This document shows positions 11,842 to 61,521 of a stretch of 64,000 nucleotides of DNA, one piece after another. Source of the stretch: Escherichia coli (GTDB lineage Bacteria; Pseudomonadota; Gammaproteobacteria; Enterobacterales; Enterobacteriaceae); NCBI RefSeq assembly GCF_002854065.1, contig NZ_CP024147.1, one strand, 5' to 3'. The notes below the pieces were generated by a model. The model made no database searches. It was given only the letters and a program-made list of their open reading frames with translations, and was not told the DNA's origin. Each line of letters starts with the position of its first letter. Position 1 is the stretch's first letter. A program made the translations under genes and the position numbers.

Positions 11842-13944
11842 ATGTTTGCCAAATTCATAGATGTTATTCAAACGTTTTTAACTGAACCGGCAATTTTAAT
11901 TGGTTTGCTGGTGGGTATTGGTTATGCCCTTGATAAGAAATCGCCAATAAAAATTATTACCGGCATGGTCAGCGCCATGGTGGGATTAATGATGGTGTTA
12001 TTTGGTGGTTTCCAGTTTTCCGCAACATTTAAACCGGTAGCAGAAGCCGGGTGATGCTGCCAACTTACTGATTTAGTGTATGATGGTGTTTTTGAGGTGC
12101 TCCAGTGGCTTCTGTTTCTATCAGCTGTCCCTCCTGTTCAGCTACTGACGGGGTGGTGCGTAACGGCAAAAGCACTGCCGGACATCAGCGCTATCTCTGC
12201 TCTCACTGCCGTAAAACATGGCAACTGCAGTTCACTTACACCGCTTCTCAACCCGGTACGCACCAGAAAATCATTGATATGGCCATGAATGGCGTTGGAT
12301 GCCGGGCAACCGCCCGCATTATGGGCGTTGGCCTCAACACGATTTTCCGCCATTTAAAAAACTCAGGCCGCAGTCGGTAACCTCGCGCATACAGCCGGGC
12401 AGTGACGTCATCGTCTGCGCGGAAATGGACGAACAGTGGGGATACGTCGGGGCTAAATCGCGCCAGCGCTGGCTGTTTTACGCGTATGACAGGCTCCGGA
12501 AGACGGTTGTTGCGCACGTATTCGGTGAACGCACTATGGCGACGCTGGGGCGTCTTATGAGCCTGCTGTCACCCTTTGACGTGGTGATATGGATGACGGA
12601 TGGCTGGCCGCTGTATGAATCCCGCCTGAAGGGAAAGCTGCACGTAATCAGCAAGCGATATACGCAGCGAATTGAGCGGCATAACCTGAATCTGAGGCAG
12701 CACCTGGCACGGCTGGGACGGAAGTCGCTGTCGTTCTCAAAATCGGTGGAGCTGCATGACAAAGTCATCGGGCATTATCTGAACATAAAACACTATCAAT
12801 AAGTTGGAGTCATTACCCAGAAGCCGTAAGTAAAGCCTATGGTGTTCACGGATATTTAATGGATTCCTACGCAATGAAAGCGGCAACGCAAATTGCATTG
12901 GGGGATAATTTTGGTTATGTCGGGTATGTATTTGTACTGGCGTTTTTTACCAACCTGCTGCTGGTATTATTTGGTCGGTATACTGGTGCCAAAGGGATAT
13001 TTTTGACAGGGAATACCGGTGTTTCACATTCTCAGGCGGTATTATGGTTGATTGTCTTTTGGCTGGGTTTTAGCTGGACTACATCCATTATTATTGCCGG
13101 AATATTAACGGGTGTATTCTGGGCGTTCTTCACCACGCTCATTGTTAAGCCCATTGCCAAAGTTACCAAAGATGCCGGTTTTACCATTGCTCATAACCAG
13201 ATGTTGGGATTGTGGTTTTTCTCCAAATTCGCCCATAAATTTGGTGACCCTGAAAAGCACGATGCTGAAAACCTGAAACTTCCCGGGTGGCTGGCGATTT
13301 TTAACCATAACGTAACGGCTATCGCCATTGTGATGACGCTGTTTGTCGGTGGTTTCTTGCTATCAACGGGTATCGATAATGTCCAGTTAATGGCGAAAGG
13401 CAAGCCCTGGTACATCTATATCATCAACCTTGGCTTACAGTTCTCCATGTATATGGTCATTCTGCTGCAGGGTGTGCGCATGATGGTGGGCGAAATTAAC
13501 GGTTCGTTTAAAGGCTGGCAAGATCGCTTTATTCCTAACGCTATTCCTGCTGTCGATGTTGCAGCGCTGTTACCTTTTTCACCCAATGCCACAACGTTAG
13601 GCTTCGTCTTCTGTACTTTTGGCACCATTTTTTCGATGGGGATCTTATTACTGGTTCACAGCCCAATTATGGTATTGCCTGGCTTTGTACCTCTGTTTTT
13701 CTCTGGCGGTCCAATTGGCGTATTAGCAAACCGCATGGGCGGATACCGTTCCGTAATTATCTGTACGTTCTTGCTGGGTATTATTCAGACCTTTGGTACG
13801 GTGTGGGCTATTCCGTTAACCGGGCTTGCTGAAAATGGCGTCGGCTGGACAGGAATATTTGACTGGGCAACCGTATGGCCTGCTATTTGTGAAGTTCTGA
13901 AATTTATCGCTGCAACATTCCATCTTGGTCCTTACGCGGGTTAA
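11842..13944 (+). pseudogene. PTS ascorbate-family (UlaA/SgaT-like) EIIC, split by an IS1 insertion
   Basis: ORFs 11824..12054 and 12859..13944 both resemble UlaA; removing IS1 plus one TSD copy (777 bp) restores one in-frame ORF of about 441 aa; start codon 11842 vs 11824 uncertain. Confidence 0.8.
12050..12817 (+). mobile_element. insAB: IS1 copy 1 (768 bp) with 9-bp target-site duplication CAGAAGCCG
   Basis: Terminal inverted repeats ggtgatgctgccaacttactgat / ...aagttggagtcattacc; insA 12105..12380 and insB 12299..12802; identical 9 bp at 12041..12049 and 12818..12826. Confidence 0.95.
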
Positions 13945-17511: not shown

Positions 17512-17655
<144 letters not shown>

Positions 17656-39684: not shown

Positions 39685-40800
39685 ATGAAAAAGCGGAAAA
39701 CCGTGAAGAAGCGTTACGTTATTGCGCTGGTGATAGTCATCGCCGGACTGATTACGTTATGGAGAATTCTTAACGCACCCGTGCCGACTTATCAGACACT
39801 GATTGTGCGCCCCGGTGATTTACAGCAAAGCGTGCTGGCGACCGGAAAGCTGGACGCGCTGCGTAAGGTTGATGTGGGCGCGCAGGTCAGCGGTCAGTTG
39901 AAAACACTGTCGGTGGCGATTGGCGATAAAGTAAAAAAAGACCAGCTTTTAGGGGTCATTGATCCTGAACAGGCTGAAAACCAGATCAAGGAGGTCGAAG
40001 CAACGCTGATGGAGCTACGCGCGCAGCGGCAGCAGGCGGAAGCGGAGCTGAAACTGGCGCGGGTGACGTATTCCCGTCAGCAACGTCTGGCACAAACGCA
40101 GGCGGTTTCACAGCAGGATCTCGACACCGCCGCGACGGAGATGGCTGTGAAACAGGCGCAAATTGGCACCATTGACGCGCAAATCAAGCGCAATCAGGCT
40201 TCTCTCGATACGGCTAAAACCAATCTCGATTACACTCGCATCGTTGCCCCGATGGCCGGGGAAGTCACGCAAATCACCACTCTGCAAGGCCAGACGGTGA
40301 TTGCCGCACAACAAGCACCGAACATTCTGACGCTGGCAGATATGAGCACCATGCTGGTAAAAGCGCAGGTTTCTGAAGCGGATGTAATCCACCTGAAGCC
40401 GGGGCAAAAAGCCTGGTTTACGGTACTTGGCGATCCACTGACGCGCTACGAGGGGCAAATCAAGGATGTACTACCGACGCCGGAAAAGGTTAACGACGCT
40501 ATTTTCTATTACGCCCGTTTTGAAGTCCCCAACCCCAATGGTTTGCTGCGGCTGGATATGACTGCGCAAGTGCATATTCAGCTCACCGATGTGAAAAATG
40601 TGCTGACGATCCCTCTGTCGGCGTTAGGCGATCCGGTTGGCGATAATCGTTATAAAGTCAAATTGTTGCGTAATGGTGAAACACGCGAGCGTGAAGTGAC
40701 GATTGGCGCACGTAACGATACCGATGTTGAGATTGTCAAAGGGCTGGAAGCGGGCGATGAAGTGGTGATTGGTGAGGCCAAACCAGGAGCTGCACAATGA
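39685..40800 (+). CDS. macA: Macrolide efflux membrane fusion protein MacA
   Basis: [16 protein letters not shown]-terminus, membrane-fusion-protein coiled coil; stop overlaps the macB start. Confidence 0.9.
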
Positions 40801-42743
40801 CACCCTTGCTCGAATTAAAGGATATTCGTCGCAGCTATCCTGCCGGTGATGAGCAGGTTGAGGTGCTGAAGGGCATCACCCTCGATATTTATGCCGGTGA
40901 GATGGTAGCGATTGTTGGCGCTTCGGGTTCCGGTAAATCAACCCTGATGAATATTCTCGGCTGTCTGGATAAGGCCACCAGCGGCACCTATCGCGTCGCC
41001 GGTCAGGATGTTGCCACACTGGACGCCGATGCGCTGGCGCAACTACGCCGCGAGCATTTCGGCTTTATTTTCCAGCGTTACCATTTGCTTTCGCATTTAA
41101 CCGCCGAGCAGAACGTTGAAGTACCCGCCGTCTATGCTGGTCTTGAGCGGAAACAGCGGCTGCTTCGCGCCCAGGAGTTGCTGCAACGACTGGGGCTGGA
41201 AGACCGTACAGAGTATTATCCGGCACAGCTTTCGGGTGGTCAGCAACAGCGCGTTAGCATCGCGCGGGCATTGATGAACGGCGGTCAGGTAATTCTTGCC
41301 GATGAACCAACCGGCGCACTGGACAGCCATTCTGGCGAAGAGGTGATGGCGATCCTGCATCAGCTGCGCGATCGCGGACATACGGTGATTATCGTCACCC
41401 ACGATCCGCAGGTCGCTGCTCAGGCCGAGCGGGTGATCGAAATTCGCGACGGCGAAATTGTGCGCAATCCTCCCGCCATTGAAAAAGTGAATGTTGCTGG
41501 CGGGACGGAACCTGTTGTCAACACGGTGTCTGGCTGGCGGCAGTTTGTCAGCGGTTTTAACGAGGCGCTGACGATGGCATGGCGGGCGCTGGCAGCGAAT
41601 AAAATGCGTACTTTACTGACCATGCTGGGGATTATAATCGGTATTGCGTCGGTGGTTTCCATTGTCGTGGTGGGCGACGCCGCCAAACAAATGGTGTTGG
41701 CGGATATTCGTTCTATTGGTACGAATACTATTGACGTCTACCCCGGGAAAGATTTTGGCGATGGCGATCCGCAATATCAGCAGGCGCTGAAGTACGACGA
41801 CTTAATCGCCATCCAAAAACAACCGTGGGTCGCCTCAGCCACACCTGCCGTCTCGCAAAACCTGCGCCTGCGTTATAACAATATTGATGTTGCTGCCAGT
41901 GCCAATGGCGTGAGCGGCGATTATTTTAATGTCTATGGCATGACCTTCAGTGAAGGAAACACCTTTAATCAGGAACAGCTGAACGGTCGTGCGCAGGTCG
42001 TGGTTCTCGACAGTAATACTCGCCGCCAGCTTTTCCCCCATAAAGCAGATGTGGTTGGCGAGGTGATTCTGGTCGGCAATATGCCCGCCAGAGTCATTGG
42101 TGTGGCGGAAGAAAAACAGTCGATGTTTGGTAGCAGTAAAGTGCTGCGTGTCTGGCTACCTTACAGCACGATGTCCGGGCGAGTTATGGGCCAGTCGTGG
42201 CTGAACTCCATTACTGTCAGGGTGAAAGAAGGATTTGACAGCGCCGAGGCGGAACAGCAACTCACGCGTTTACTTTCACTGCGCCACGGTAAGAAGGATT
42301 TCTTTACCTGGAACATGGACGGCGTCTTGAAAACCGTTGAAAAGACCACACGTACTTTACAACTGTTTCTGACGCTGGTGGCGGTGATTTCGCTGGTAGT
42401 GGGCGGTATTGGTGTAATGAATATTATGCTGGTGTCAGTGACCGAGCGGACGCGGGAAATTGGCATTCGCATGGCTGTAGGTGCGCGAGCAAGCGATGTT
42501 TTGCAACAGTTCCTGATCGAAGCCGTACTGGTTTGCCTGGTTGGTGGCGCGTTGGGAATAACACTGTCACTGTTAATTGCTTTCACCTTGCAGCTTTTCT
42601 TACCCGGCTGGGAGATTGGTTTTTCACCGTTGGCACTGCTGCTGGCGTTTCTCTGCTCGACGGCCACCGGGATTTTATTTGGCTGGTTACCCGCACGAAA
42701 TGCGGCACGACTGGATCCAGTAGATGCTCTGGCACGAGAGTAA
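40797..42743 (+). CDS. macB: Macrolide export ABC transporter MacB, fused ATPase-permease (648 aa)
   Basis: Walker [10 protein letters not shown], signature LSGGQQQR, C-terminal FtsX-like permease. Confidence 0.95.
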
Positions 42744-42756
42744 TTTTTGAGATAAA

Positions 42757-42783
42757 AATGCCAGCCGATCGGGCTGGCATTTT
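42757..42783. terminator. Hairpin between convergent macB and cspD (likely bidirectional terminator)
   Basis: Stem atgccagcc / ggctggcat followed by ttttgcc. Confidence 0.5.
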
Positions 42784-42815
42784 GCCTTTAGGATGTACAC
42801 AATGAGACAGAAGAG

Positions 42816-43040
42816 CTATGCGACTGCCGCTTCTACTTCGACGGGCACAATAACACTGGCGTGATTGCCTTTTGGCCCCTGGTGGACATCAAACTGAACG
42901 GATTGTCCAGCTTTTAGCGTTCTGTAACCATCCATCTGAATGGTGGAATAATGAGCGAAAATATCTTCGCCGCCGCCTTCAGGGCAGATGAAACCAAACC
43001 CTTTGGCATTGTTGAACCACTTAACAGTACCCTTTTCCAT
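42816..43040 (-). CDS. cspD: Cold-shock-like protein CspD (74 aa)
   Basis: MEKGTVKWFNNAKGFGFI cold-shock domain; start trimmed from the ORF track. Confidence 0.9.
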   Translation of the reverse strand: MEKGTVKWFNNAKGFGFICPEGGGEDIFAHYSTIQMDGYRTLKAGQSVQFDVHQGPKGNHASVIVPVEVEAAVA

Positions 43041-43362
43041 GCTTCGACATCCTTCGCAAATCTTATACAAGTAAGATGGAATAAACCGGGGTCAGAGAGG
43101 GGGCTGTTCAAAACCTCGCCAACTCTAGAAATACAATTTAGAGAATTAGGGCGAGCCGTCAAGCATTTGACAGGGGACAAGGGGCAGGTATGAATCAAAA
43201 ATTTGAAGCAGTTAACGCTATTGACAGGAATGTGACAGATGTCGCTGATGCCAACGATAGATGATAGTTATCTATCATGTGGAGTAGATTGGTCAGGCAA
43301 ATAAGCTCTTGTCAGCGGCAGGGCGTTCTGCCGATAACCGTAACCGAAGATGATAACTGACA

Positions 43363-43683
43363 ATGGGTAAAACGAACGACTGGCTGGACTTTGATCAACT
43401 GGCGGAAGAAAAAGTTCGCGACGCGCTAAAACCGCCATCTATGTATAAAGTGATATTAGTCAATGATGATTACACTCCGATGGAGTTTGTTATTGACGTG
43501 TTACAAAAATTCTTTTCTTATGATGTAGAACGTGCAACGCAATTGATGCTCGCTGTTCACTACCAGGGGAAGGCCATTTGCGGAGTCTTTACCGCCGAGG
43601 TTGCAGAAACCAAAGTGGCGATGGTGAACAAGTACGCGAGGGAGAATGAGCATCCATTGCTGTGTACGCTAGAAAAAGCCTGA
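43363..43683 (+). CDS. clpS: ClpA adaptor ClpS (106 aa)
   Basis: Recalled ClpS sequence; immediately upstream of clpA. Confidence 0.9.
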
Positions 43684-43713
43684 ATGCAGGCATAAAAATT
43701 GGGGGAGGTGCCT

Positions 43714-45990
43714 ATGCTCAATCAAGAACTGGAACTCAGTTTAAATATGGCTTTCGCCAGAGCGCGCGAGCACCGTCATGAGTTTATGACCGTCGAGCAC
43801 TTGTTACTGGCGCTGCTCAGTAACCCATCTGCCCGGGAGGCGCTGGAAGCGTGTTCTGTGGATTTGGTTGCGCTCCGTCAGGAACTGGAAGCCTTTATTG
43901 AACAAACCACACCCGTTCTGCCTGCCAGTGAAGAGGAGCGCGACACACAGCCGACGCTGAGTTTTCAGCGTGTACTGCAACGTGCGGTCTTCCATGTCCA
44001 GTCCTCCGGTCGCAATGAGGTTACCGGTGCAAACGTTCTGGTCGCTATCTTTAGCGAACAGGAGTCGCAGGCGGCATATCTGTTGCGTAAACATGAAGTC
44101 AGCCGTCTCGATGTGGTGAACTTTATCTCTCATGGCACGCGTAAAGACGAGCCGACACAGTCTTCTGATCCTGGCAGCCAGCCAAACAGCGAAGAACAAG
44201 CTGGTGGGGAGGAACGTATGGAGAATTTCACGACGAACCTGAATCAGCTTGCGCGCGTGGGCGGAATCGACCCACTGATTGGTCGTGAGAAGGAGCTTGA
44301 GCGTGCTATTCAGGTTCTCTGCCGTCGCCGTAAAAACAACCCGCTGCTGGTGGGGGAATCTGGTGTTGGTAAAACTGCGATTGCGGAAGGTCTTGCCTGG
44401 CGAATTGTTCAGGGCGATGTGCCGGAAGTGATGGCTGACTGTACAATTTACTCACTCGATATCGGTTCTCTGTTAGCGGGCACAAAATATCGCGGCGACT
44501 TTGAAAAACGTTTTAAAGCGTTGCTCAAGCAGCTGGAGCAGGACACTAACAGCATCCTGTTTATTGATGAGATCCACACCATTATCGGTGCGGGGGCAGC
44601 GTCTGGTGGTCAGGTCGATGCGGCTAACCTAATCAAACCGTTGCTCTCCAGCGGTAAAATTCGTGTAATTGGTTCGACAACCTATCAGGAGTTCAGCAAC
44701 ATTTTCGAGAAAGACCGTGCTCTGGCGCGTCGCTTCCAGAAAATTGATATTACTGAACCGTCGATCGAAGAAACTGTTCAAATCATCAATGGCCTGAAAC
44801 CGAAGTATGAAGCACACCACGACGTGCGTTATACCGCAAAAGCGGTGCGTGCGGCGGTAGAGCTGGCGGTGAAATACATTAACGATCGTCATCTGCCGGA
44901 TAAAGCCATTGATGTTATCGACGAAGCGGGCGCTCGCGCACGCCTGATGCCGGTAAGCAAACGCAAGAAAACCGTTAATGTGGCGGATATTGAGTCCGTG
45001 GTGGCCCGTATTGCACGCATTCCAGAGAAGAGTGTTTCTCAGAGTGATCGTGATACCCTGAAAAACCTCGGCGATCGCCTGAAAATGCTGGTCTTCGGTC
45101 AGGATAAAGCCATTGAGGCGCTGACTGAAGCCATTAAGATGGCGCGTGCAGGTTTAGGTCACGAACATAAACCGGTCGGTTCGTTCCTGTTTGCCGGTCC
45201 TACCGGGGTCGGGAAAACAGAGGTGACGGTACAGCTTTCGAAAGCTTTGGGCATTGAGCTTCTGCGCTTTGATATGTCCGAGTATATGGAACGCCATACC
45301 GTCAGCCGTCTGATTGGTGCGCCTCCGGGATACGTTGGTTTTGATCAGGGCGGTTTGCTGACTGATGCGGTCATCAAGCATCCACATGCGGTGCTGCTGC
45401 TGGACGAAATCGAGAAAGCGCATCCGGACGTGTTCAATATTCTGTTGCAGGTGATGGACAACGGTACGCTGACCGATAACAACGGACGCAAAGCGGACTT
45501 CCGTAACGTGGTGCTGGTGATGACCACTAACGCCGGGGTACGGGAAACTGAGCGCAAATCCATTGGTCTTATCCACCAGGATAACAGCACCGATGCGATG
45601 GAAGAGATCAAGAAGATCTTTACACCGGAATTCCGTAACCGTCTCGACAACATTATCTGGTTCGATCATCTGTCAACTGACGTGATCCATCAGGTGGTGG
45701 ATAAATTCATCGTCGAGTTGCAGGTTCAGCTGGATCAGAAAGGTGTTTCTCTGGAAGTGAGCCAGGAAGCGCGTAACTGGCTGGCCGAGAAAGGTTACGA
45801 CCGGGCAATGGGCGCACGTCCGATGGCGCGTGTCATCCAGGACAACCTGAAAAAACCGCTTGCCAACGAACTGCTGTTTGGTTCGCTGGTGGACGGCGGT
45901 CAGGTCACCGTCGCGCTGGATAAAGAGAAAAATGAGCTGACTTACGGATTCCAGAGTGCACAAAAGCACAAGGCGGAAGCAGCGCATTAA
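43714..45990 (+). CDS. clpA: ATP-dependent Clp protease ATP-binding subunit ClpA (758 aa)
   Basis: Two AAA+ modules ([16 protein letters not shown]); start at [11 protein letters not shown]. Confidence 0.95.
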
Positions 45991-46013
45991 TCTGATTGTC
46001 AGGTAGGTTGGTG

Positions 46014-46048
46014 AAGTCCGTAATCTCGAAAGAGGTTACGGACTTTTT
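46014..46048 (+). terminator. clpA intrinsic terminator
   Basis: Stem aagtccgtaa / ttacggactt followed by a T-run. Confidence 0.6.
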
Positions 46049-46202
46049 ATTTATGGGGTGGAGGAGGTTCAGACCCTTTTTTTGATGATGATGGTAACTT
46101 GTTGATAATTAGTGCTGCTGGAAGGTAAGGATAAAAAAGGGTGCTGCGGGAGAATGGGATGGTTTTGCTTTATTAACAACGGGCTAAACGTGTAGTATTT
46201 GA

Positions 46203-46290
46203 ATTCACTGCCGTACAGGCAGCTTAGAAAGTCAACCGAAAGAAAAACTCGATTTTTATACCGTTCACTGCTGTACAGGTAGATAAAATG
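46203..46290 (+). CRISPR. Orphan type I-F-like CRISPR remnant: two 28-bp repeats flanking one 32-bp spacer
   Basis: Repeat 1 attcactgccgtacaggcagcttagaaa (27/28 to the I-F consensus GTTCACTGCCGTACAGGCAGCTTAGAAA); spacer gtcaaccgaaagaaaaactcgatttttatacc; repeat 2 is degenerate (7 mismatches); no cas genes in the window. Confidence 0.7.
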
Positions 46291-46292
46291 CG

Positions 46293-46321
46293 AAAAAAAA
46301 GCTCGCACTTTCGTACGAGCT
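46293..46321 (-). terminator. serW intrinsic terminator
   Basis: Hairpin agctcg...cgagct followed on the minus-strand transcript by U8 (plus-strand A8 at 46293..46300). Confidence 0.6.
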
Positions 46322-46333
46322 CTTCTTTAAATA

Positions 46334-46421
46334 TGGCGGTGAGGGGGGGATTCGAACCCCCGATACGTTGCCGTATACACACTTTCCAGGCGTGCTCCTT
46401 CAGCCACTCGGACACCTCACC
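46334..46421 (-). tRNA. serW: tRNA-Ser, anticodon GGA (88 nt including CCA)
   Basis: Minus-strand sequence GGTGAGGTGTCCGAGTGG...CCTGGAAAG...GGTTCGAATCCCCCCCTCACCGCCA with a long variable arm. Confidence 0.9.
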
Positions 46422-46674
46422 AAATTGTTTTGCTGCCAAACCTCATGGGTGGCAACGGGGCGCTACTATAGGGAGTTGGAGTAAAACGGTCAAGAAGAAT
46501 TTTAATGATAATTATTGTTTGCTCATACTGTAAACAACTTGTGCAGTATATCTACATCGAGACAAGTTATGGACTTATACTTCCAAAGTACTTCATACAT
46601 ATCACAAAATAAAAAGGCCGGTTAAACCGACCTTTTACTCGTTCTTTCTCTTCGCCCATCAGGCGGTAAAACAA

Positions 46675-46896
<222 letters not shown>

Positions 46897-47177
46897 ATCC
46901 TCTGGGGTATCACTACCGTAATTTGAACCGGCAAGATAATGCCGAAGTTCTGTAAATAAGTAAAGATTTGCGCGCTAAATCGCAACAAACAGGTTCGGCA
47001 CATTACTCCGAAAACACACGGCTAAGCCGCACCAAAAGCGCAACGTATAAGGGAGCGGTGAGATAAACGATGGGCGTTACCTGACGCGAAAAATTCCTTA
47101 TCGGCAGCGGGGTAATGAGCGTAACCAACTCTGCGACCGCAATTATAACACTCTGGGGAGAAATGTGCCGAAAACAT

Positions 47178-47882
47178 TCATTCTTGTGGTGAAAACAAGC
47201 ATCGTGGTACCCAGAAATTATTCGGCAATCGTCCGAGGCGCATTTGATTGAGATAATTAAGGTAATCCCGGCGGGGAATTTCGCAGGCACCAAGCGATGC
47301 TGTGTGATCGTTAAGGACCTGGCAGTCGATAAGCTTACCGCCATGACCGATAAATTCCTCACAGAATACCAGAAGCGCCGTTTTAGACGCATTTTCCATC
47401 CGGCTGAACATGGACTCGCCACAAAATAGCGTTCCCTGGGCCACGCCGTACATACCGCCGACAAGCTCATCTTCACGCCAGACTTCAATGGAGTGGGCAT
47501 GACCGAGTTCGTGAATGCGATGGTAGGCTTCGACCACGCCACGCGTGATCCAGGTTCCTTCTTCGCGATCGCTGGCACAGCCTTCAATGACCTGACCAAA
47601 AGCGTAATTCATCGTGACACGATAGGGCGAGCGTTTATGAAATCGCTTCATACTACGGCTGATATGCAGTGATTCTGGCCATAGCACCGCGCGAGGATCG
47701 GGCGACCACCAGAGGATGGGGTCGCCTGGAGAAAACCACGGAAAAATACCACGCTGGTAAGCCATTAACAGGCGCGCAGGGCTAAGATCGCCCCCAAGTG
47801 CCAGCAGGCCGTTAGGCTCACGTAATGCGCCTTCCGGGGAAGGGAAGGCTATTGAATGGCGAGAAAGCTGAACCAGGCGCAT
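47178..47882 (-). CDS. aat: Leucyl/phenylalanyl-tRNA-protein transferase (234 aa)
   Basis: Recalled Aat sequence; synteny between infA and cydC. Confidence 0.9.
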
Positions 47883-47923
47883 GACCGCAAAACTCCACGC
47901 AAGTCGGATCGTTCAATAATAGC

Positions 47924-49645
47924 TTACAAACCCTGCTTGAACTGGTAATAACGCCCCTGTCTGGCAAGCAGTTCTGCGTGAGTACCTTGCTCAATAATTT
48001 GCCCGTTGTCCATCACTATTATTTGCTGGAAACGAGAGAGTCCGCGAAGTCGATGGGTGACCATTAACACCGTTTTCTCATGCATCATTTCTGCAAGCAA
48101 TTCAAGGATCTGACTTTCGGTTGTGGCATCTAAGCCTTCTGTAGGTTCATCCAGCAACACCAGTGGCGCATCATGTAACAGCGCACGGGCGATAGCCAGG
48201 CGGCGCAGTTCACCACCGGAGAGCTGGCGTCCGCCTTCACCTAACCAACTGTTGAGACCTGCATCCTCGAGCAGCTTCTCCAGACCAACGCGACGCAAGA
48301 TCTCCGACAGAGTCTCATCACTACTGCCAGGCGAGGCGAGTAACAGATTATCACGCAGCGTGGCGCTAAACAGATGCACTCGCTGAGGAACAACGCTGAT
48401 GGTCTGTCGTAGAGCCGCTTCATTCAGGCTTGCTATGGGGCTATCGTTAAGCAAAATCTCGCCCTGTTGCGGGTCCCATGCGCGGGTCAGCAGTTGTAAC
48501 AGTGTTGATTTGCCGCATCCGGTTCGCCCGAGAATCGCTATATGTTCCCCGGCGTTTACCTGAAGAGAAATCCCTTTAAGTGCCTGTTGAGATTGCTCCG
48601 GATAAGTGAACTGAACATCCCGTAACGTCAGCGAAACGCGATCGGCAACACGAGTTTGGGTATCAGGGAAGGTGACCTCCGGTTTTTGATCCGTTAAATC
48701 AGTGATCCGAACGGCAGAGGCAATGACTTGCCCCAGATGCTGAAATGCACCCGTTACTGGTGCCAGTGCTTCAAACGCGGCTAACGCGCAAAAGACAAAC
48801 AGGGCAATTAACGCGCCGGGTTGAGCATTGCCGCCAACGCCGCCAGACGCCATCCACAGCATCAGGATCACCGCTAACGCGCCAATGAGCAGCATTATCG
48901 CTTGCGACAATGCGGTCAGTTCAGATTGACGGCGTTGCGCTTCCAGCCATTGAATTTCTGTATTCTCTAGTTGCGTGCGATAACGATCGCTGGCACCAAA
49001 AATGGTCAGCTCAGCTTGCCCTTGCAGCCAGGCCGTCAGTTGTTGGCGATACTGTCCGCGAAGATGAGTCAGATTTTGCCCGGTGCTTTTTCCCGCACGA
49101 TAAAACAGCGGTGGCATCAGGAAAAGCGTCAGTAACATAATGCCGCCCAGCGTAAAGGCGAGGGTGAAATCAAGGAAACTTAACCCGATTGTCACCACCA
49201 TAATCACCACAAAAGCGCCCACCAGCGGCGAGATAACGCGCAGGTAAAGATGATCGAGCGTATCAACATCCGCCACCACGCGGTTGAGCAATTCGCCCTG
49301 ACGATAGCGCGCCAGTCCGGCAGGGGAGAGGGGCAACAATTTGCTGAAGGTGTAAATGCGCAGATGCTGCAACACGCGGAAAGTCGCGTCGTGACTTACC
49401 AGACGTTCAAAATAACGCCCGGCAGTACGGGTGATTGCGGCACCACGCACGCCCGCAGCGGGTAGCATATAGTTGAAGCTGTACAGTCCGGCAACCCCCG
49501 CAACCGCTGAGGCCGAGAGGAACCAGCCGGAAAGTGTCAACAGACCGATACTGGCGAGCAGCGTCGCAATTGCCAGCACAATACCAAGACTTAACATCCA
49601 TTTATGACGTTTATACAGTGCCAGATAGGGTAGCAAAGCGCGCAT
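47924..49645 (-). CDS. cydC: ABC transporter CydC, glutathione/cysteine exporter subunit (573 aa)
   Basis: Membrane domain plus ABC ATPase (GRTGCGKST, LSGGE); paired with cydD. Confidence 0.95.
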   Translation of the reverse strand: MRALLPYLALYKRHKWMLSLGIVLAIATLLASIGLLTLSGWFLSASAVAGVAGLYSFNYMLPAAGVRGAAITRTAGRYFERLVSHDATFRVLQHLRIYTFSKLLPLSPAGLARYRQGELLNRVVADVDTLDHLYLRVISPLVGAFVVIMVVTIGLSFLDFTLAFTLGGIMLLTLFLMPPLFYRAGKSTGQNLTHLRGQYRQQLTAWLQGQAELTIFGASDRYRTQLENTEIQWLEAQRRQSELTALSQAIMLLIGALAVILMLWMASGGVGGNAQPGALIALFVFCALAAFEALAPVTGAFQHLGQVIASAVRITDLTDQKPEVTFPDTQTRVADRVSLTLRDVQFTYPEQSQQALKGISLQVNAGEHIAILGRTGCGKSTLLQLLTRAWDPQQGEILLNDSPIASLNEAALRQTISVVPQRVHLFSATLRDNLLLASPGSSDETLSEILRRVGLEKLLEDAGLNSWLGEGGRQLSGGELRRLAIARALLHDAPLVLLDEPTEGLDATTESQILELLAEMMHEKTVLMVTHRLRGLSRFQQIIVMDNGQIIEQGTHAELLARQGRYYQFKQGL

Positions 49646-51412
49646 TTAAATCTCCTCCTGACGATGGGCCAGTAATGTGGCGAATGGGCCACCAGCCACA
49701 CTTAATTCCGCGTAACGTCCTTGCTCAATAATCCGGCCATCCTGCATAACCCAAATGACATCCCAGTCAGCAAGATCTTCTAACTGGTGGGTGACCATTA
49801 ACGTTGTCTGGCGCAGAGAGGCGGCATTCAGCGCCTCCATTACGCGCTGTTCACTGTGAGCATCAAGGCTGGCAGCGGGTTCATCCAACAGTAATAGCGA
49901 ACAGGGATTTAGTAACGCACGGGCCACCGCCACGCGCTGCGCCTGCCCCACGGAAAGGCGGGCAGCCTGGTCGCCAACAGGCGTATCAACGCCTTGTGGC
50001 AGGAGCGGTAGAAACTCGCTGACCCAGGCGTTATCCAGCGCTGCTTGTAATTCTTGTTCGCTGGCATCAGGTCGCGCCAGTAGTACGTTATCCCGTAATG
50101 CTGCTGCCGGTAATTGTGGGTTTTGCCCAACCCAGGAGAGATGTTTACGCCATGATTCTGGTGATAAATCGCGTAATTCTATCCCGTTGATTCGTAATGA
50201 TCCCTGATATGAGAGAAAACCAGAAAGCGCGTTCAGCAGTGAGCTTTTACCTGAACCGCTGCGACCAACCAACACTGCACGTTGGCCTGCTGGCAAAGTA
50301 AAGTTCAGCGGTCCGGCCAGCGTTTTACCTTCCGGCGACGTGATAAACAGATCCTCGGCCTCAATGGTCACCGGATCGGTCGATGCTAATTCCGCCTCAC
50401 CGCGCTGCGGATGGGCGAGCGGGGTTTCCATAAACGTTTTCAGACTGTCAGCTGCACCAACAGCCTGGGCTTTAGCATGATAAAACGTACCGAGATCGCG
50501 CAATGGCTGGAAAAACTCTGGCGCAAGGATCAGGGCCAGAAAACCCGCAGCCAGCGTCACACCGGTATCGTAGTGACCAAAATCCAGCTCGCCGAGATAG
50601 GAAAAACCAAAGTAGACCGCCACCAGAGCAATTGACAGCGAGGTAAAAAATTCGAGAATGCCGGAGGATAAAAACGCCAGCCGTAGCACTTCCATTGTCC
50701 GTTGGCGGAAATCTTCCGAAGCAGAACGAATACTTTCAATTTCAGCTTCACCACGACCAAAAATACGCAATGTTTCCATGCCGCGCAGGCGATCGAGGAA
50801 ATGCCCACTTAAGCGAGCAAGAGCGAGAAAGTTACGTCGGTTAGCATCGGCAGCCCCCATCCCAACCAGCGCCATAAACAACGGAATTAACGGTGCAGTG
50901 CCCAGCAGAATGAGCGCCGCAGCCCAGTTAGAGGGGAAGATCGCCACCACAATCAGCAACGGCACCGACACTGCCAGCGCCATTTGCGGCAGGTAGCGTG
51001 CATAGTAATCATGCATATCGTCAATTTGCTCGAGTACCAGCGTCGCCCAGCTCCCCGCAGGTTTACCCTGAATCCACGCTGGCCCTGCTTGTTGCAGACG
51101 GTCGAGAACCTGACGGCGGATGGCAAAGCGGATATGCTGCCCGGCGTGATAACCCACCCGTTCGCGTAACCAGACCACCCATGCGCGCAGTACAAAGGTC
51201 AGAACCAGTAACGTAAAGGGAAGCAGCAGGGCTTCACGGGGAATATTCTCCATAATCATATGTTGCAGAATTCGCGCCATGAACCATGCCTGGGCAATGA
51301 TCAATATGCCGCTCACAAAGCCCAGCAGACGAGAAATATTCAGCCAACGTTGGGAGATGACGCTTTGCTGTTTTAACCAGCGGGTTAACTCTTTTTGACG
51401 AGATTTATTCAT
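49646..51412 (-). CDS. cydD: ABC transporter CydD (588 aa)
   Basis: Membrane domain plus ABC ATPase (GRSGSGKSS); stop abuts the cydC start. Confidence 0.95.
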   Translation of the reverse strand: MNKSRQKELTRWLKQQSVISQRWLNISRLLGFVSGILIIAQAWFMARILQHMIMENIPREALLLPFTLLVLTFVLRAWVVWLRERVGYHAGQHIRFAIRRQVLDRLQQAGPAWIQGKPAGSWATLVLEQIDDMHDYYARYLPQMALAVSVPLLIVVAIFPSNWAAALILLGTAPLIPLFMALVGMGAADANRRNFLALARLSGHFLDRLRGMETLRIFGRGEAEIESIRSASEDFRQRTMEVLRLAFLSSGILEFFTSLSIALVAVYFGFSYLGELDFGHYDTGVTLAAGFLALILAPEFFQPLRDLGTFYHAKAQAVGAADSLKTFMETPLAHPQRGEAELASTDPVTIEAEDLFITSPEGKTLAGPLNFTLPAGQRAVLVGRSGSGKSSLLNALSGFLSYQGSLRINGIELRDLSPESWRKHLSWVGQNPQLPAAALRDNVLLARPDASEQELQAALDNAWVSEFLPLLPQGVDTPVGDQAARLSVGQAQRVAVARALLNPCSLLLLDEPAASLDAHSEQRVMEALNAASLRQTTLMVTHQLEDLADWDVIWVMQDGRIIEQGRYAELSVAGGPFATLLAHRQEEI

Positions 51413-51534
51413 TGCACGCTTAGCAGGTGAGTTATCAGAATTATTTGCAGAGCAATGTTACAACGGGGAAAAAATAAAGGCGACCCATAGTCGCATGGTG
51501 TCGCCTTCTTTACTTTTGTTACTGATTTGTAAAA

Positions 51535-52617
<1,083 letters not shown>

Positions 52618-61283: not shown

Positions 61284-61307
61284 TACCCAATTTTTCTGAA
61301 TCTAAAA

Positions 61308-61329
61308 AGCGCCTGCGGGCGCTTTTTTT
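61308..61329 (+). terminator. serS intrinsic terminator
   Basis: Stem agcgcc / ggcgct with loop tgcg, followed by T7. Confidence 0.7.
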
Positions 61330-61521
61330 GTCTCCCTTTGATACCGAACAATAATTACTCCTCACTTACACGTAATACTACTTTCGAGTGAAAATCTACC
61401 TATCTCTTTGATTTTCAAATTATTCGATGTATACAAGCCTATATAGCGAACTGCTATAGAAATAATTACACAATACGGTTTGTTACTGGAATCAATCGTG
61501 AGCAAGCTTGAGTGAGCCATT

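Follow-up and report, generated by a model that had tools for sequence, protein, structure and literature searches.

An orphan type I-F CRISPR array with an anti-csy3 spacer between clpA and serW of Escherichia coli

The clpA-serW intergenic region of E. coli, which occupies positions 45991-46333 of the 64-kb window (the whole 64,000-nt stretch of DNA analysed here), contains two short repeats separated by one spacer. A CRISPR array of this size, standing between two housekeeping genes, raises the question of where it comes from and what it could do in a cell that carries no cas genes beside it. The locus was reportedly described by Diez-Villasenor et al. in 2010, and anti-cas spacers in the orphan CRISPR4 arrays of E. 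coli are said to have been treated by Almendros, Guzman, Garcia-Martinez and Mojica in 2016. From the analyses below, the element is almost certainly an E. coli orphan type I-F CRISPR array (CRISPR-III locus, CRISPR4.1-2) with an anti-csy3 spacer, and we place the probability of this identification and the published anti-cas mechanism of the array class, taken together, at about 0.9.

The surroundings of the array were determined by comparison with annotated genomes. The interval from 40000 to 52000 showed 100% identity to the closed genome CUWW06 and 99.4% to O157:H7 TR01, and the genes there are arranged in the order macAB, cspD, clpS, clpA, tRNA-Ser, infA, aat and cydCD. Alignment with the annotated K-12 and CUWW06 records placed the end of clpA at 45990. 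The right-hand neighbour of the array is serW, a tRNA-Ser(GGA) gene on the minus strand (46334-46421), which was detected by ARAGORN and by the Rfam tRNA model. The intrinsic terminator hairpin of serW (46293-46328, minus strand), found by terminator-site prediction, directly adjoins the array. Rfam matches to MicC, the Thr leader and a plastid 3' UTR overlapped this region far under their gathering scores, lay over serW and its terminator, and were rejected. Two RNAs elsewhere in the window reached the Rfam gathering level, namely STnc130 sRNA (61297-61431, minus strand, 140 bits) and naRNA4/CssrE (17516-17596, plus strand, 78.5 bits); both count among the ordinary features of enterobacteria and are unrelated to the array.

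Repeat 1 (ATTCACTGCCGTACAGGCAGCTTAGAAA, 28 nt, 46203-46230, plus strand) was assigned from the type I-F consensus and the Rfam CRISPR-DR4 model. It agrees with the consensus at 27 of 28 positions, the sole difference being G1→A, a change common to O157:H7, and it is the only match to the consensus with three or fewer mismatches in the whole window (0.00 expected from 100 shuffles). The score of repeat 1 on CRISPR-DR4 (RF01317) was 47.0 bits, to be compared with a gathering score of 35. Its hairpin, CUGCC-GUACA-GGCAG, of the type with a 5-bp stem and a 5-nt loop, is intact (-8.6 kcal/mol, z = -2.7), and so is CUUAGAAA, the 8-nt source of the 5' handle. The G1→A change is located at the leader-repeat junction and might impair the integration of new spacers.

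Terminal repeat 2 (GTTCACTGCTGTACAGGTAGATAAAATG, 28 nt, 46263-46290, plus strand) was delimited by repeat comparison, folding and junction sequences. The two repeats are spaced by 60 nt from start to start (28 + 32), which makes a minimal array, with one spacer between its two repeats. In repeat 2, the first 20 nt (46263-46282) are repeat-derived and match at 18 positions, whereas the last 8 nt have diverged and continue into the 3' flank of serW, so that the overall agreement is 21/28; on CRISPR-DR4, repeat 2 did not reach E ≤ 1. In type I-F systems, Cas6f cleaves after G20 of the repeat hairpin. The two substitutions in repeat 2, C10U and C18U, each replace G-C pairing by a G-U wobble and leave the G20/A19 base of the stem in place. 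The resulting hairpin has the same shape but is weaker (-4.0 kcal/mol, equalled or bettered by 51 of 200 shuffles), and binding and cleavage by Cas6f may be impaired at this repeat. The elements required to make one crRNA are nevertheless preserved: the repeat 1 hairpin, the 5' handle, and the repeat 2 stem by way of its two G-U wobbles. The first-pass annotation had described two 28-nt repeats around a single 32-nt spacer at 46203-46290, a first repeat at 27/28 to the I-F consensus, a degenerate terminal repeat, a clpA gene ending at 45990, serW starting at 46334 and the serW terminator immediately adjacent. Each of these descriptions held, the coordinates being exact to the base and the gene ends being supported by the alignment and ARAGORN.

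The clpA stop codon and repeat 1 are separated by 212 nt (45991-46202, plus strand), which were recognised as a CRISPR leader by alignments with other strains. Base by base, they line up with the UTI89 leader of the cas-linked array on the clpA side (CRISPR4.1), at positions 12001-12212 of the UTI89 record (L002), and up to repeat 1 the window is nearly identical to K-12, strain 100416 and UTI89. The leader alignments also took in O157:H7, 7/2 and ETEC6333. The leader includes the terminator hairpin of clpA (46013-46046) and a candidate promoter with the form TTGATG-16-GATAAT (46082-46109, plus strand), which was picked out by its match to the consensus at 9 of 12 positions; its -35 hexamer is not conserved and reads TTAATG in K-12 and UTI89.

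A complete type I-F system requires adjacent cas1f-cas3f-csy1-csy2-csy3-cas6f genes, and no I-F cas gene was detected in the 64-kb window, either by tblastn with six UTI89 I-F Cas proteins or by blastn with the operon. The statement of the first-pass annotation that no cas genes are nearby was thus borne out. When the UTI89 operon was compared with the window by blastn, the spacer and the serW terminator were the only matches. In UTI89, the six genes lie in the order above between the clpA-side array and serW, and a second array is located between serW and infA. The homology of the window with UTI89 ends after the first 20 nt of repeat 2 and restarts at the serW terminator, as seen from the blastn match with the UTI89 cas region at 46294-46331 and from the junction sequences. 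The UTI89-type second array on the infA side and its leader are absent from the window. Because no cas gene was found in the 64-kb window and clpA, tRNA-Ser and infA immediately neighbour one another in the closed genome CUWW06, which matches the window, the array is an orphan and not a complete system. The first-pass annotation had considered that the interval might be the boundary of a cas-flanked array in an unassembled region; this is not so, since clpA, serW and infA are contiguous and 12 kb around them are identical to the closed genome.

The complete I-F loci of the B2 strains UTI89, SF-166 and ATCC 11775 share with the window the insertion site, the leader and the repeat, and their clpA-side array begins at the same base. 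Unlike the window, these strains have six cas genes, a clpA-side array with multiple spacers (nine repeats in UTI89) and an array between serW and infA. In the serW-infA interval of the window (46422-46610), the match with UTI89 extends only to about 'GTCAAGAAGAATTT' and is followed by about 110 nt of unrelated AT-rich sequence, which occupy the place of the roughly 700-nt leader and infA-side array of UTI89. The I-F locus has its second deletion boundary at this break. In both B2 strains whose records were fetched, csy2 is annotated as a pseudogene with an internal stop (UTI89, L002 18740-19663; SF-166, L006 9205-10128), and because of this pseudogene the 'complete' I-F systems of UTI89 and SF-166 may themselves be non-functional.

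The single spacer (GTCAACCGAAAGAAAAACTCGATTTTTATACC, 32 nt, 46231-46262, plus strand) was found by sequence matches to be directed against csy3 (cas7f). Its search against phage, plasmid and chromosomal sequences, including self-targets, had been proposed in the first-pass annotation, and csy3 with a CC PAM was the outcome. Among 5426 complete E. coli genomes, the spacer matched copies of the array at the same position and the csy3 gene of cas-positive strains (31/32); the other matches were weak ones of 24-26 nt to an IS3 transposase (E about 2). The protospacer of UTI89 corresponds to csy3 nt 863-894 on the coding strand with CC immediately 5', and csy3 of both UTI89 and SF-166 matches at 31/32 with the CC PAM. 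The lone mismatch against the common E. coli csy3 allele, at spacer position 23, is a synonymous one (GAT vs GAC). The type I-F seed comprises the PAM-proximal positions 1-5, 7 and 8, and by this general knowledge of type I-F the position-23 mismatch falls outside the seed. An exact-pattern scan with one genome per species added two 32/32 matches with the CC PAM, one in the csy3 gene of Escherichia whittamii Sa2BVA5 and the other in that of Escherichia sp. E1V33. The latter strain has its I-F locus and infA on one contig, a few kb apart, with a 38-repeat array between them. The CC PAM was present at every csy3 match of the spacer. The PAM of the E. coli I-F system was reported as 5'-protospacer-GG-3' on the leader-proximal side, which is CC at the 5' side on the spacer-identical strand (PMC3506596), and the CC position at the csy3 protospacer agrees with this rule.

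Searches for other targets were negative within their scope. Blastn against 50,697 phage records gave only chance matches of 20-25 nt (E about 1-3), the exact scan of IMG/VR with a 27-nt core pattern gave no target, and there was no plasmid target in PLSDB, where the one full match is an E. coli chromosome filed there. No second copy of the spacer is present in the window at three or fewer mismatches. In the 22-kb I-F locus of SF-166 (L006), the csy3 protospacer is the only spacer match at six or fewer mismatches; the second match of SF-166, outside its I-F locus, is assumed to be one of the weak IS3-transposase matches. The literal spacer sequences of the window and of K-12, on both strands, had no match across 8 million papers.

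The comparison of the clpA-infA interval across strains, also proposed in the first-pass annotation, was made with complete E. coli genomes. The orphan-type interval, at least 80% covered, was found in 4928 of 5426 genomes (about 91%). csy3 was present in 241 of the 5426 genomes (243 matches, all chromosomal), which means that I-F cas genes are missing from about 95% of complete E. coli genomes. Twelve cas-less loci were analysed individually, i.e., those of the window, K-12, O157:H7 TR01, 7/2, ETEC6333, 98223, AMSCJX03, KFu022, R13, RM9872-C1, RM14723 and ST3. These 12 arrays contain 10 distinct spacers, each of which has a match with 1-5 mismatches in cas1f, cas3f or csy3 of UTI89; the CC PAM accompanies nine of the 10.

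The array of O157:H7 TR01 is identical to that of the window, down to the G1→A change of repeat 1 and the two substitutions of repeat 2. The orphan array of K-12 has the same architecture and the same coordinates relative to clpA and serW, with a nearly identical leader, but its spacer (TTCACAGGTAACATACTCCACCCGCCCACCAT) targets cas1f (30/32, minus strand, CC PAM) instead of csy3, and its repeat 2 stem has a C-A mismatch where the window has G-U wobbles. The K-12-like form is the common one, with 3810 genomes in the 90-95% identity band. Copies of the window spacer with drifted sequences are present in strains 7/2 and ETEC6333 (GCCAACC... and GCCAGCC...), with changes at the seed positions 2 and 5. 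These drifted copies and the 4-nt deletion in the K-12-type spacer of other lineages look like a pattern of relaxed constraint. A second csy3 allele of E. coli, represented by B7A (L010 1063-1094), is 94.5% identical to that of UTI89 and was found in 39 genomes. Its protospacer reads GCCAACC...TTTCTACACC, and the C at position 2 is also present in the spacer variants of 7/2 and ETEC6333; a different csy3 allele, rather than drift, may have been the source of these variants.

The properties of a type I-F array of the CRISPR-4 / Ypest repeat family were found in the repeat model, the 60-nt period, the hairpin of repeat 1 and a leader of the cas-linked kind, and those of an orphan CRISPR4.1-2 array in the clpA-infA site, the absence of cas-F genes from the 64-kb window and the match of the spacer to an I-F cas gene beside the PAM. 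The locus corresponds to CRISPR-III, and a single cassette without cas genes at this site was named CRISPR4.1-2 by the Mojica laboratory; a single cassette at CRISPR-III implies that cas genes are absent (PMC3903273). The known CRISPR4.1-2 arrays resemble the window in locus, repeat family, leader, lack of cas-F genes and I-F-cas spacer with CC PAM, and the differences are at the allele level only (G1→A, the two G-U wobbles and csy3 matched at 32/32 vs 31/32). Reviews from the laboratory that studied these orphan arrays (PMC8616872 and PMC5972030) assign them an anti-cas role. According to PMC8616872, citing Almendros et al. 2016 (Nat Microbiol 1:16081), the best matches of orphan-array spacers are 'almost invariably' I-F cas genes, native orphan arrays cause interference against plasmids with the full I-F gene set, and the arrays are expressed constitutively and set off primed acquisition; PMC5972030 gives the same account. 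An independent 2025 survey of urological isolates (PMC12736100) found eight such spacers in cas-less strains, of which two target cas1f, five cas3f and one csy3. Because publications and reviews on such arrays reach back to 2016 and O157:H7 carries the very same allele, the array is already known down to the allele and the window brings nothing new. Its appeal is that of a textbook-level curiosity, a CRISPR array directed against CRISPR-Cas itself, and an anti-cas array of this kind helps explain why I-F cas genes are scarce in E. coli whereas orphan arrays are common.

With transcription, processing and interference carried over from the literature on the array class, the following course of events can be proposed for this allele. 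The array would be what was left after the loss of a cas1f-cas3f-csy1-csy2-csy3-cas6f operon, namely the leader, an intact repeat, a spacer and a degenerate terminal repeat. It would be transcribed constitutively from the leader, as published for the class, and in a cell without Cas6f the transcript would stay unprocessed and inert. If an I-F cas operon enters, its Cas6f would cleave each repeat hairpin after G20, and the predicted crRNA is CUUAGAAA-[32-nt spacer]-GUUCACUGCUGUACAGGUAG. This crRNA would be taken up by the incoming Csy complex and guide it to the CC-flanked protospacer in the incoming csy3, Cas2/3 would be recruited to degrade the incoming DNA, and primed spacer acquisition would reinforce the effect. 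The expected outcome is that the re-establishment of I-F immunity is blocked. The array may also be the trace of a self-targeting event that selected for the loss of the cas genes. That this particular allele is still active in the anti-cas role we consider probable. This confidence is lower than that in the identification because the repeat 2 stem is weak, G1→A affects the leader-repeat junction, and related alleles have drifted.

The first-pass annotation was right in reading the element as an orphan I-F remnant, but with 'inert' or 'regulatory RNA' as its alternatives, it missed the documented third option of an anti-cas guide. The inert alternative is a serious one. The array would then be a decaying I-F relic, possibly left by an autoimmune event that selected the cas deletion, and would persist without present function as a tiny element between essential genes, which is compatible with the same origin. 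The G1→A change in repeat 1 and the two stem substitutions in repeat 2 are in line with decay, as are the seed-position changes of the same spacer in 7/2 and ETEC6333, the loss of 4 nt from the anti-cas1 spacer in KFu022, AMSCJX03 and 98223, the C-A mismatch in the repeat 2 stem of K-12, and the absence of RefSeq annotation on the array in K-12, CUWW06 and O157:H7. However, both repeat 2 changes preserve pairing as G-U and do not break the stem, and each of the 12 strains sampled conserves the leader, the hairpin of repeat 1 and the 5' handle. Moreover, 2-4 anti-cas spacers are found in some cas-less arrays, a number more in keeping with ongoing primed acquisition than with decay alone, and both reviews report constitutive expression of native orphan arrays and interference by them (PMC8616872, PMC5972030). 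We regard an inert scar as unlikely, at odds of the order of one to three.

A role of the transcript independent of Cas proteins, as an sRNA driven by the leader on host targets or as a modulator of serW by convergent transcription, has circumstantial points in its favour, the conserved leader with its promoter-like site and the convergence with serW. It is very improbable: the window contains no further match to the spacer at three or fewer mismatches, the non-array matches of the spacer in the 5426 E. coli genomes are csy3 and the weak IS3-transposase ones, no Rfam sRNA family scored above threshold, and the spacer is wholly different between lineages (anti-csy3, anti-cas1, anti-cas3), unlike what a conserved host target would give. 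A slim chance is left for a Cas-independent role in cas-less cells or, in a milder version, for a barrier raised in this O157-like lineage against I-F systems from other Escherichia species; the milder version is considered because csy3 is matched at 32/32 in E. whittamii and E1V33 vs 31/32 in E. coli. The small size of two repeats, and the tandem serW-flank units that stand alongside in other strains, could suggest a chance repeat or another repetitive element (REP/BIME, tRNA-flank repeat), and the first-pass annotation had allowed for a known non-CRISPR element. The repeats belong to none. The CRISPR-DR4 score is above the gathering threshold, the chance expectation is zero, the spacing is exactly 28 + 32 nt, UTI89 has a collinear leader and repeat 1 in its cas-linked multi-spacer array, and a cas gene with the correct PAM is the origin of the spacer. 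By the Rfam model, the shuffle control and the UTI89 leader and repeat alignment, a non-CRISPR origin is excluded, and we give it practically no weight. The anti-cas orphan array is the reading that we prefer.

The practical value of recognising this array lies in annotation, for RefSeq leaves it unannotated or overlays the locus with probably spurious 'hypothetical protein' genes. The records of K-12, CUWW06 and O157:H7 have no annotation on the array. RefSeq places one 'hypothetical protein' over the ST3 array (L018 273-540) and another over the RM9872-C1 leader (L016 81-215), and both genes are probably spurious. The cas-less ST3 array has four anti-cas spacers, the first two of which are identical (a duplicated repeat-spacer unit). 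The strains 98223, AMSCJX03 and KFu022 (L012, L013 and L014) carry a variant of the K-12 anti-cas1f spacer shortened by 4 nt (28 vs 32), and in 98223 and AMSCJX03, one or two anti-cas3f spacers have been added on the leader side.

Between the orphan array and serW, some cas-less strains contain tandem units, as in 7/2 (L005 431-830), ETEC6333 (L007 431-768) and the records L016 and L017. Each unit consists of the serW 3' end, the terminator and about 135 nt annotated as 'RtT sRNA' by RefSeq, and such units are absent from the window, K-12 and O157:H7. Strain 100416 (L003) is, among the matches listed, the only one with 100% identity over the whole 343-nt clpA-serW interval. A tyrosine integrase gene and a DUF3987 gene (L003 3518-6343) follow right after the serW position in this strain, with no tRNA annotated, whereas the window has infA there, which suggests that an island has integrated at serW in strain 100416.
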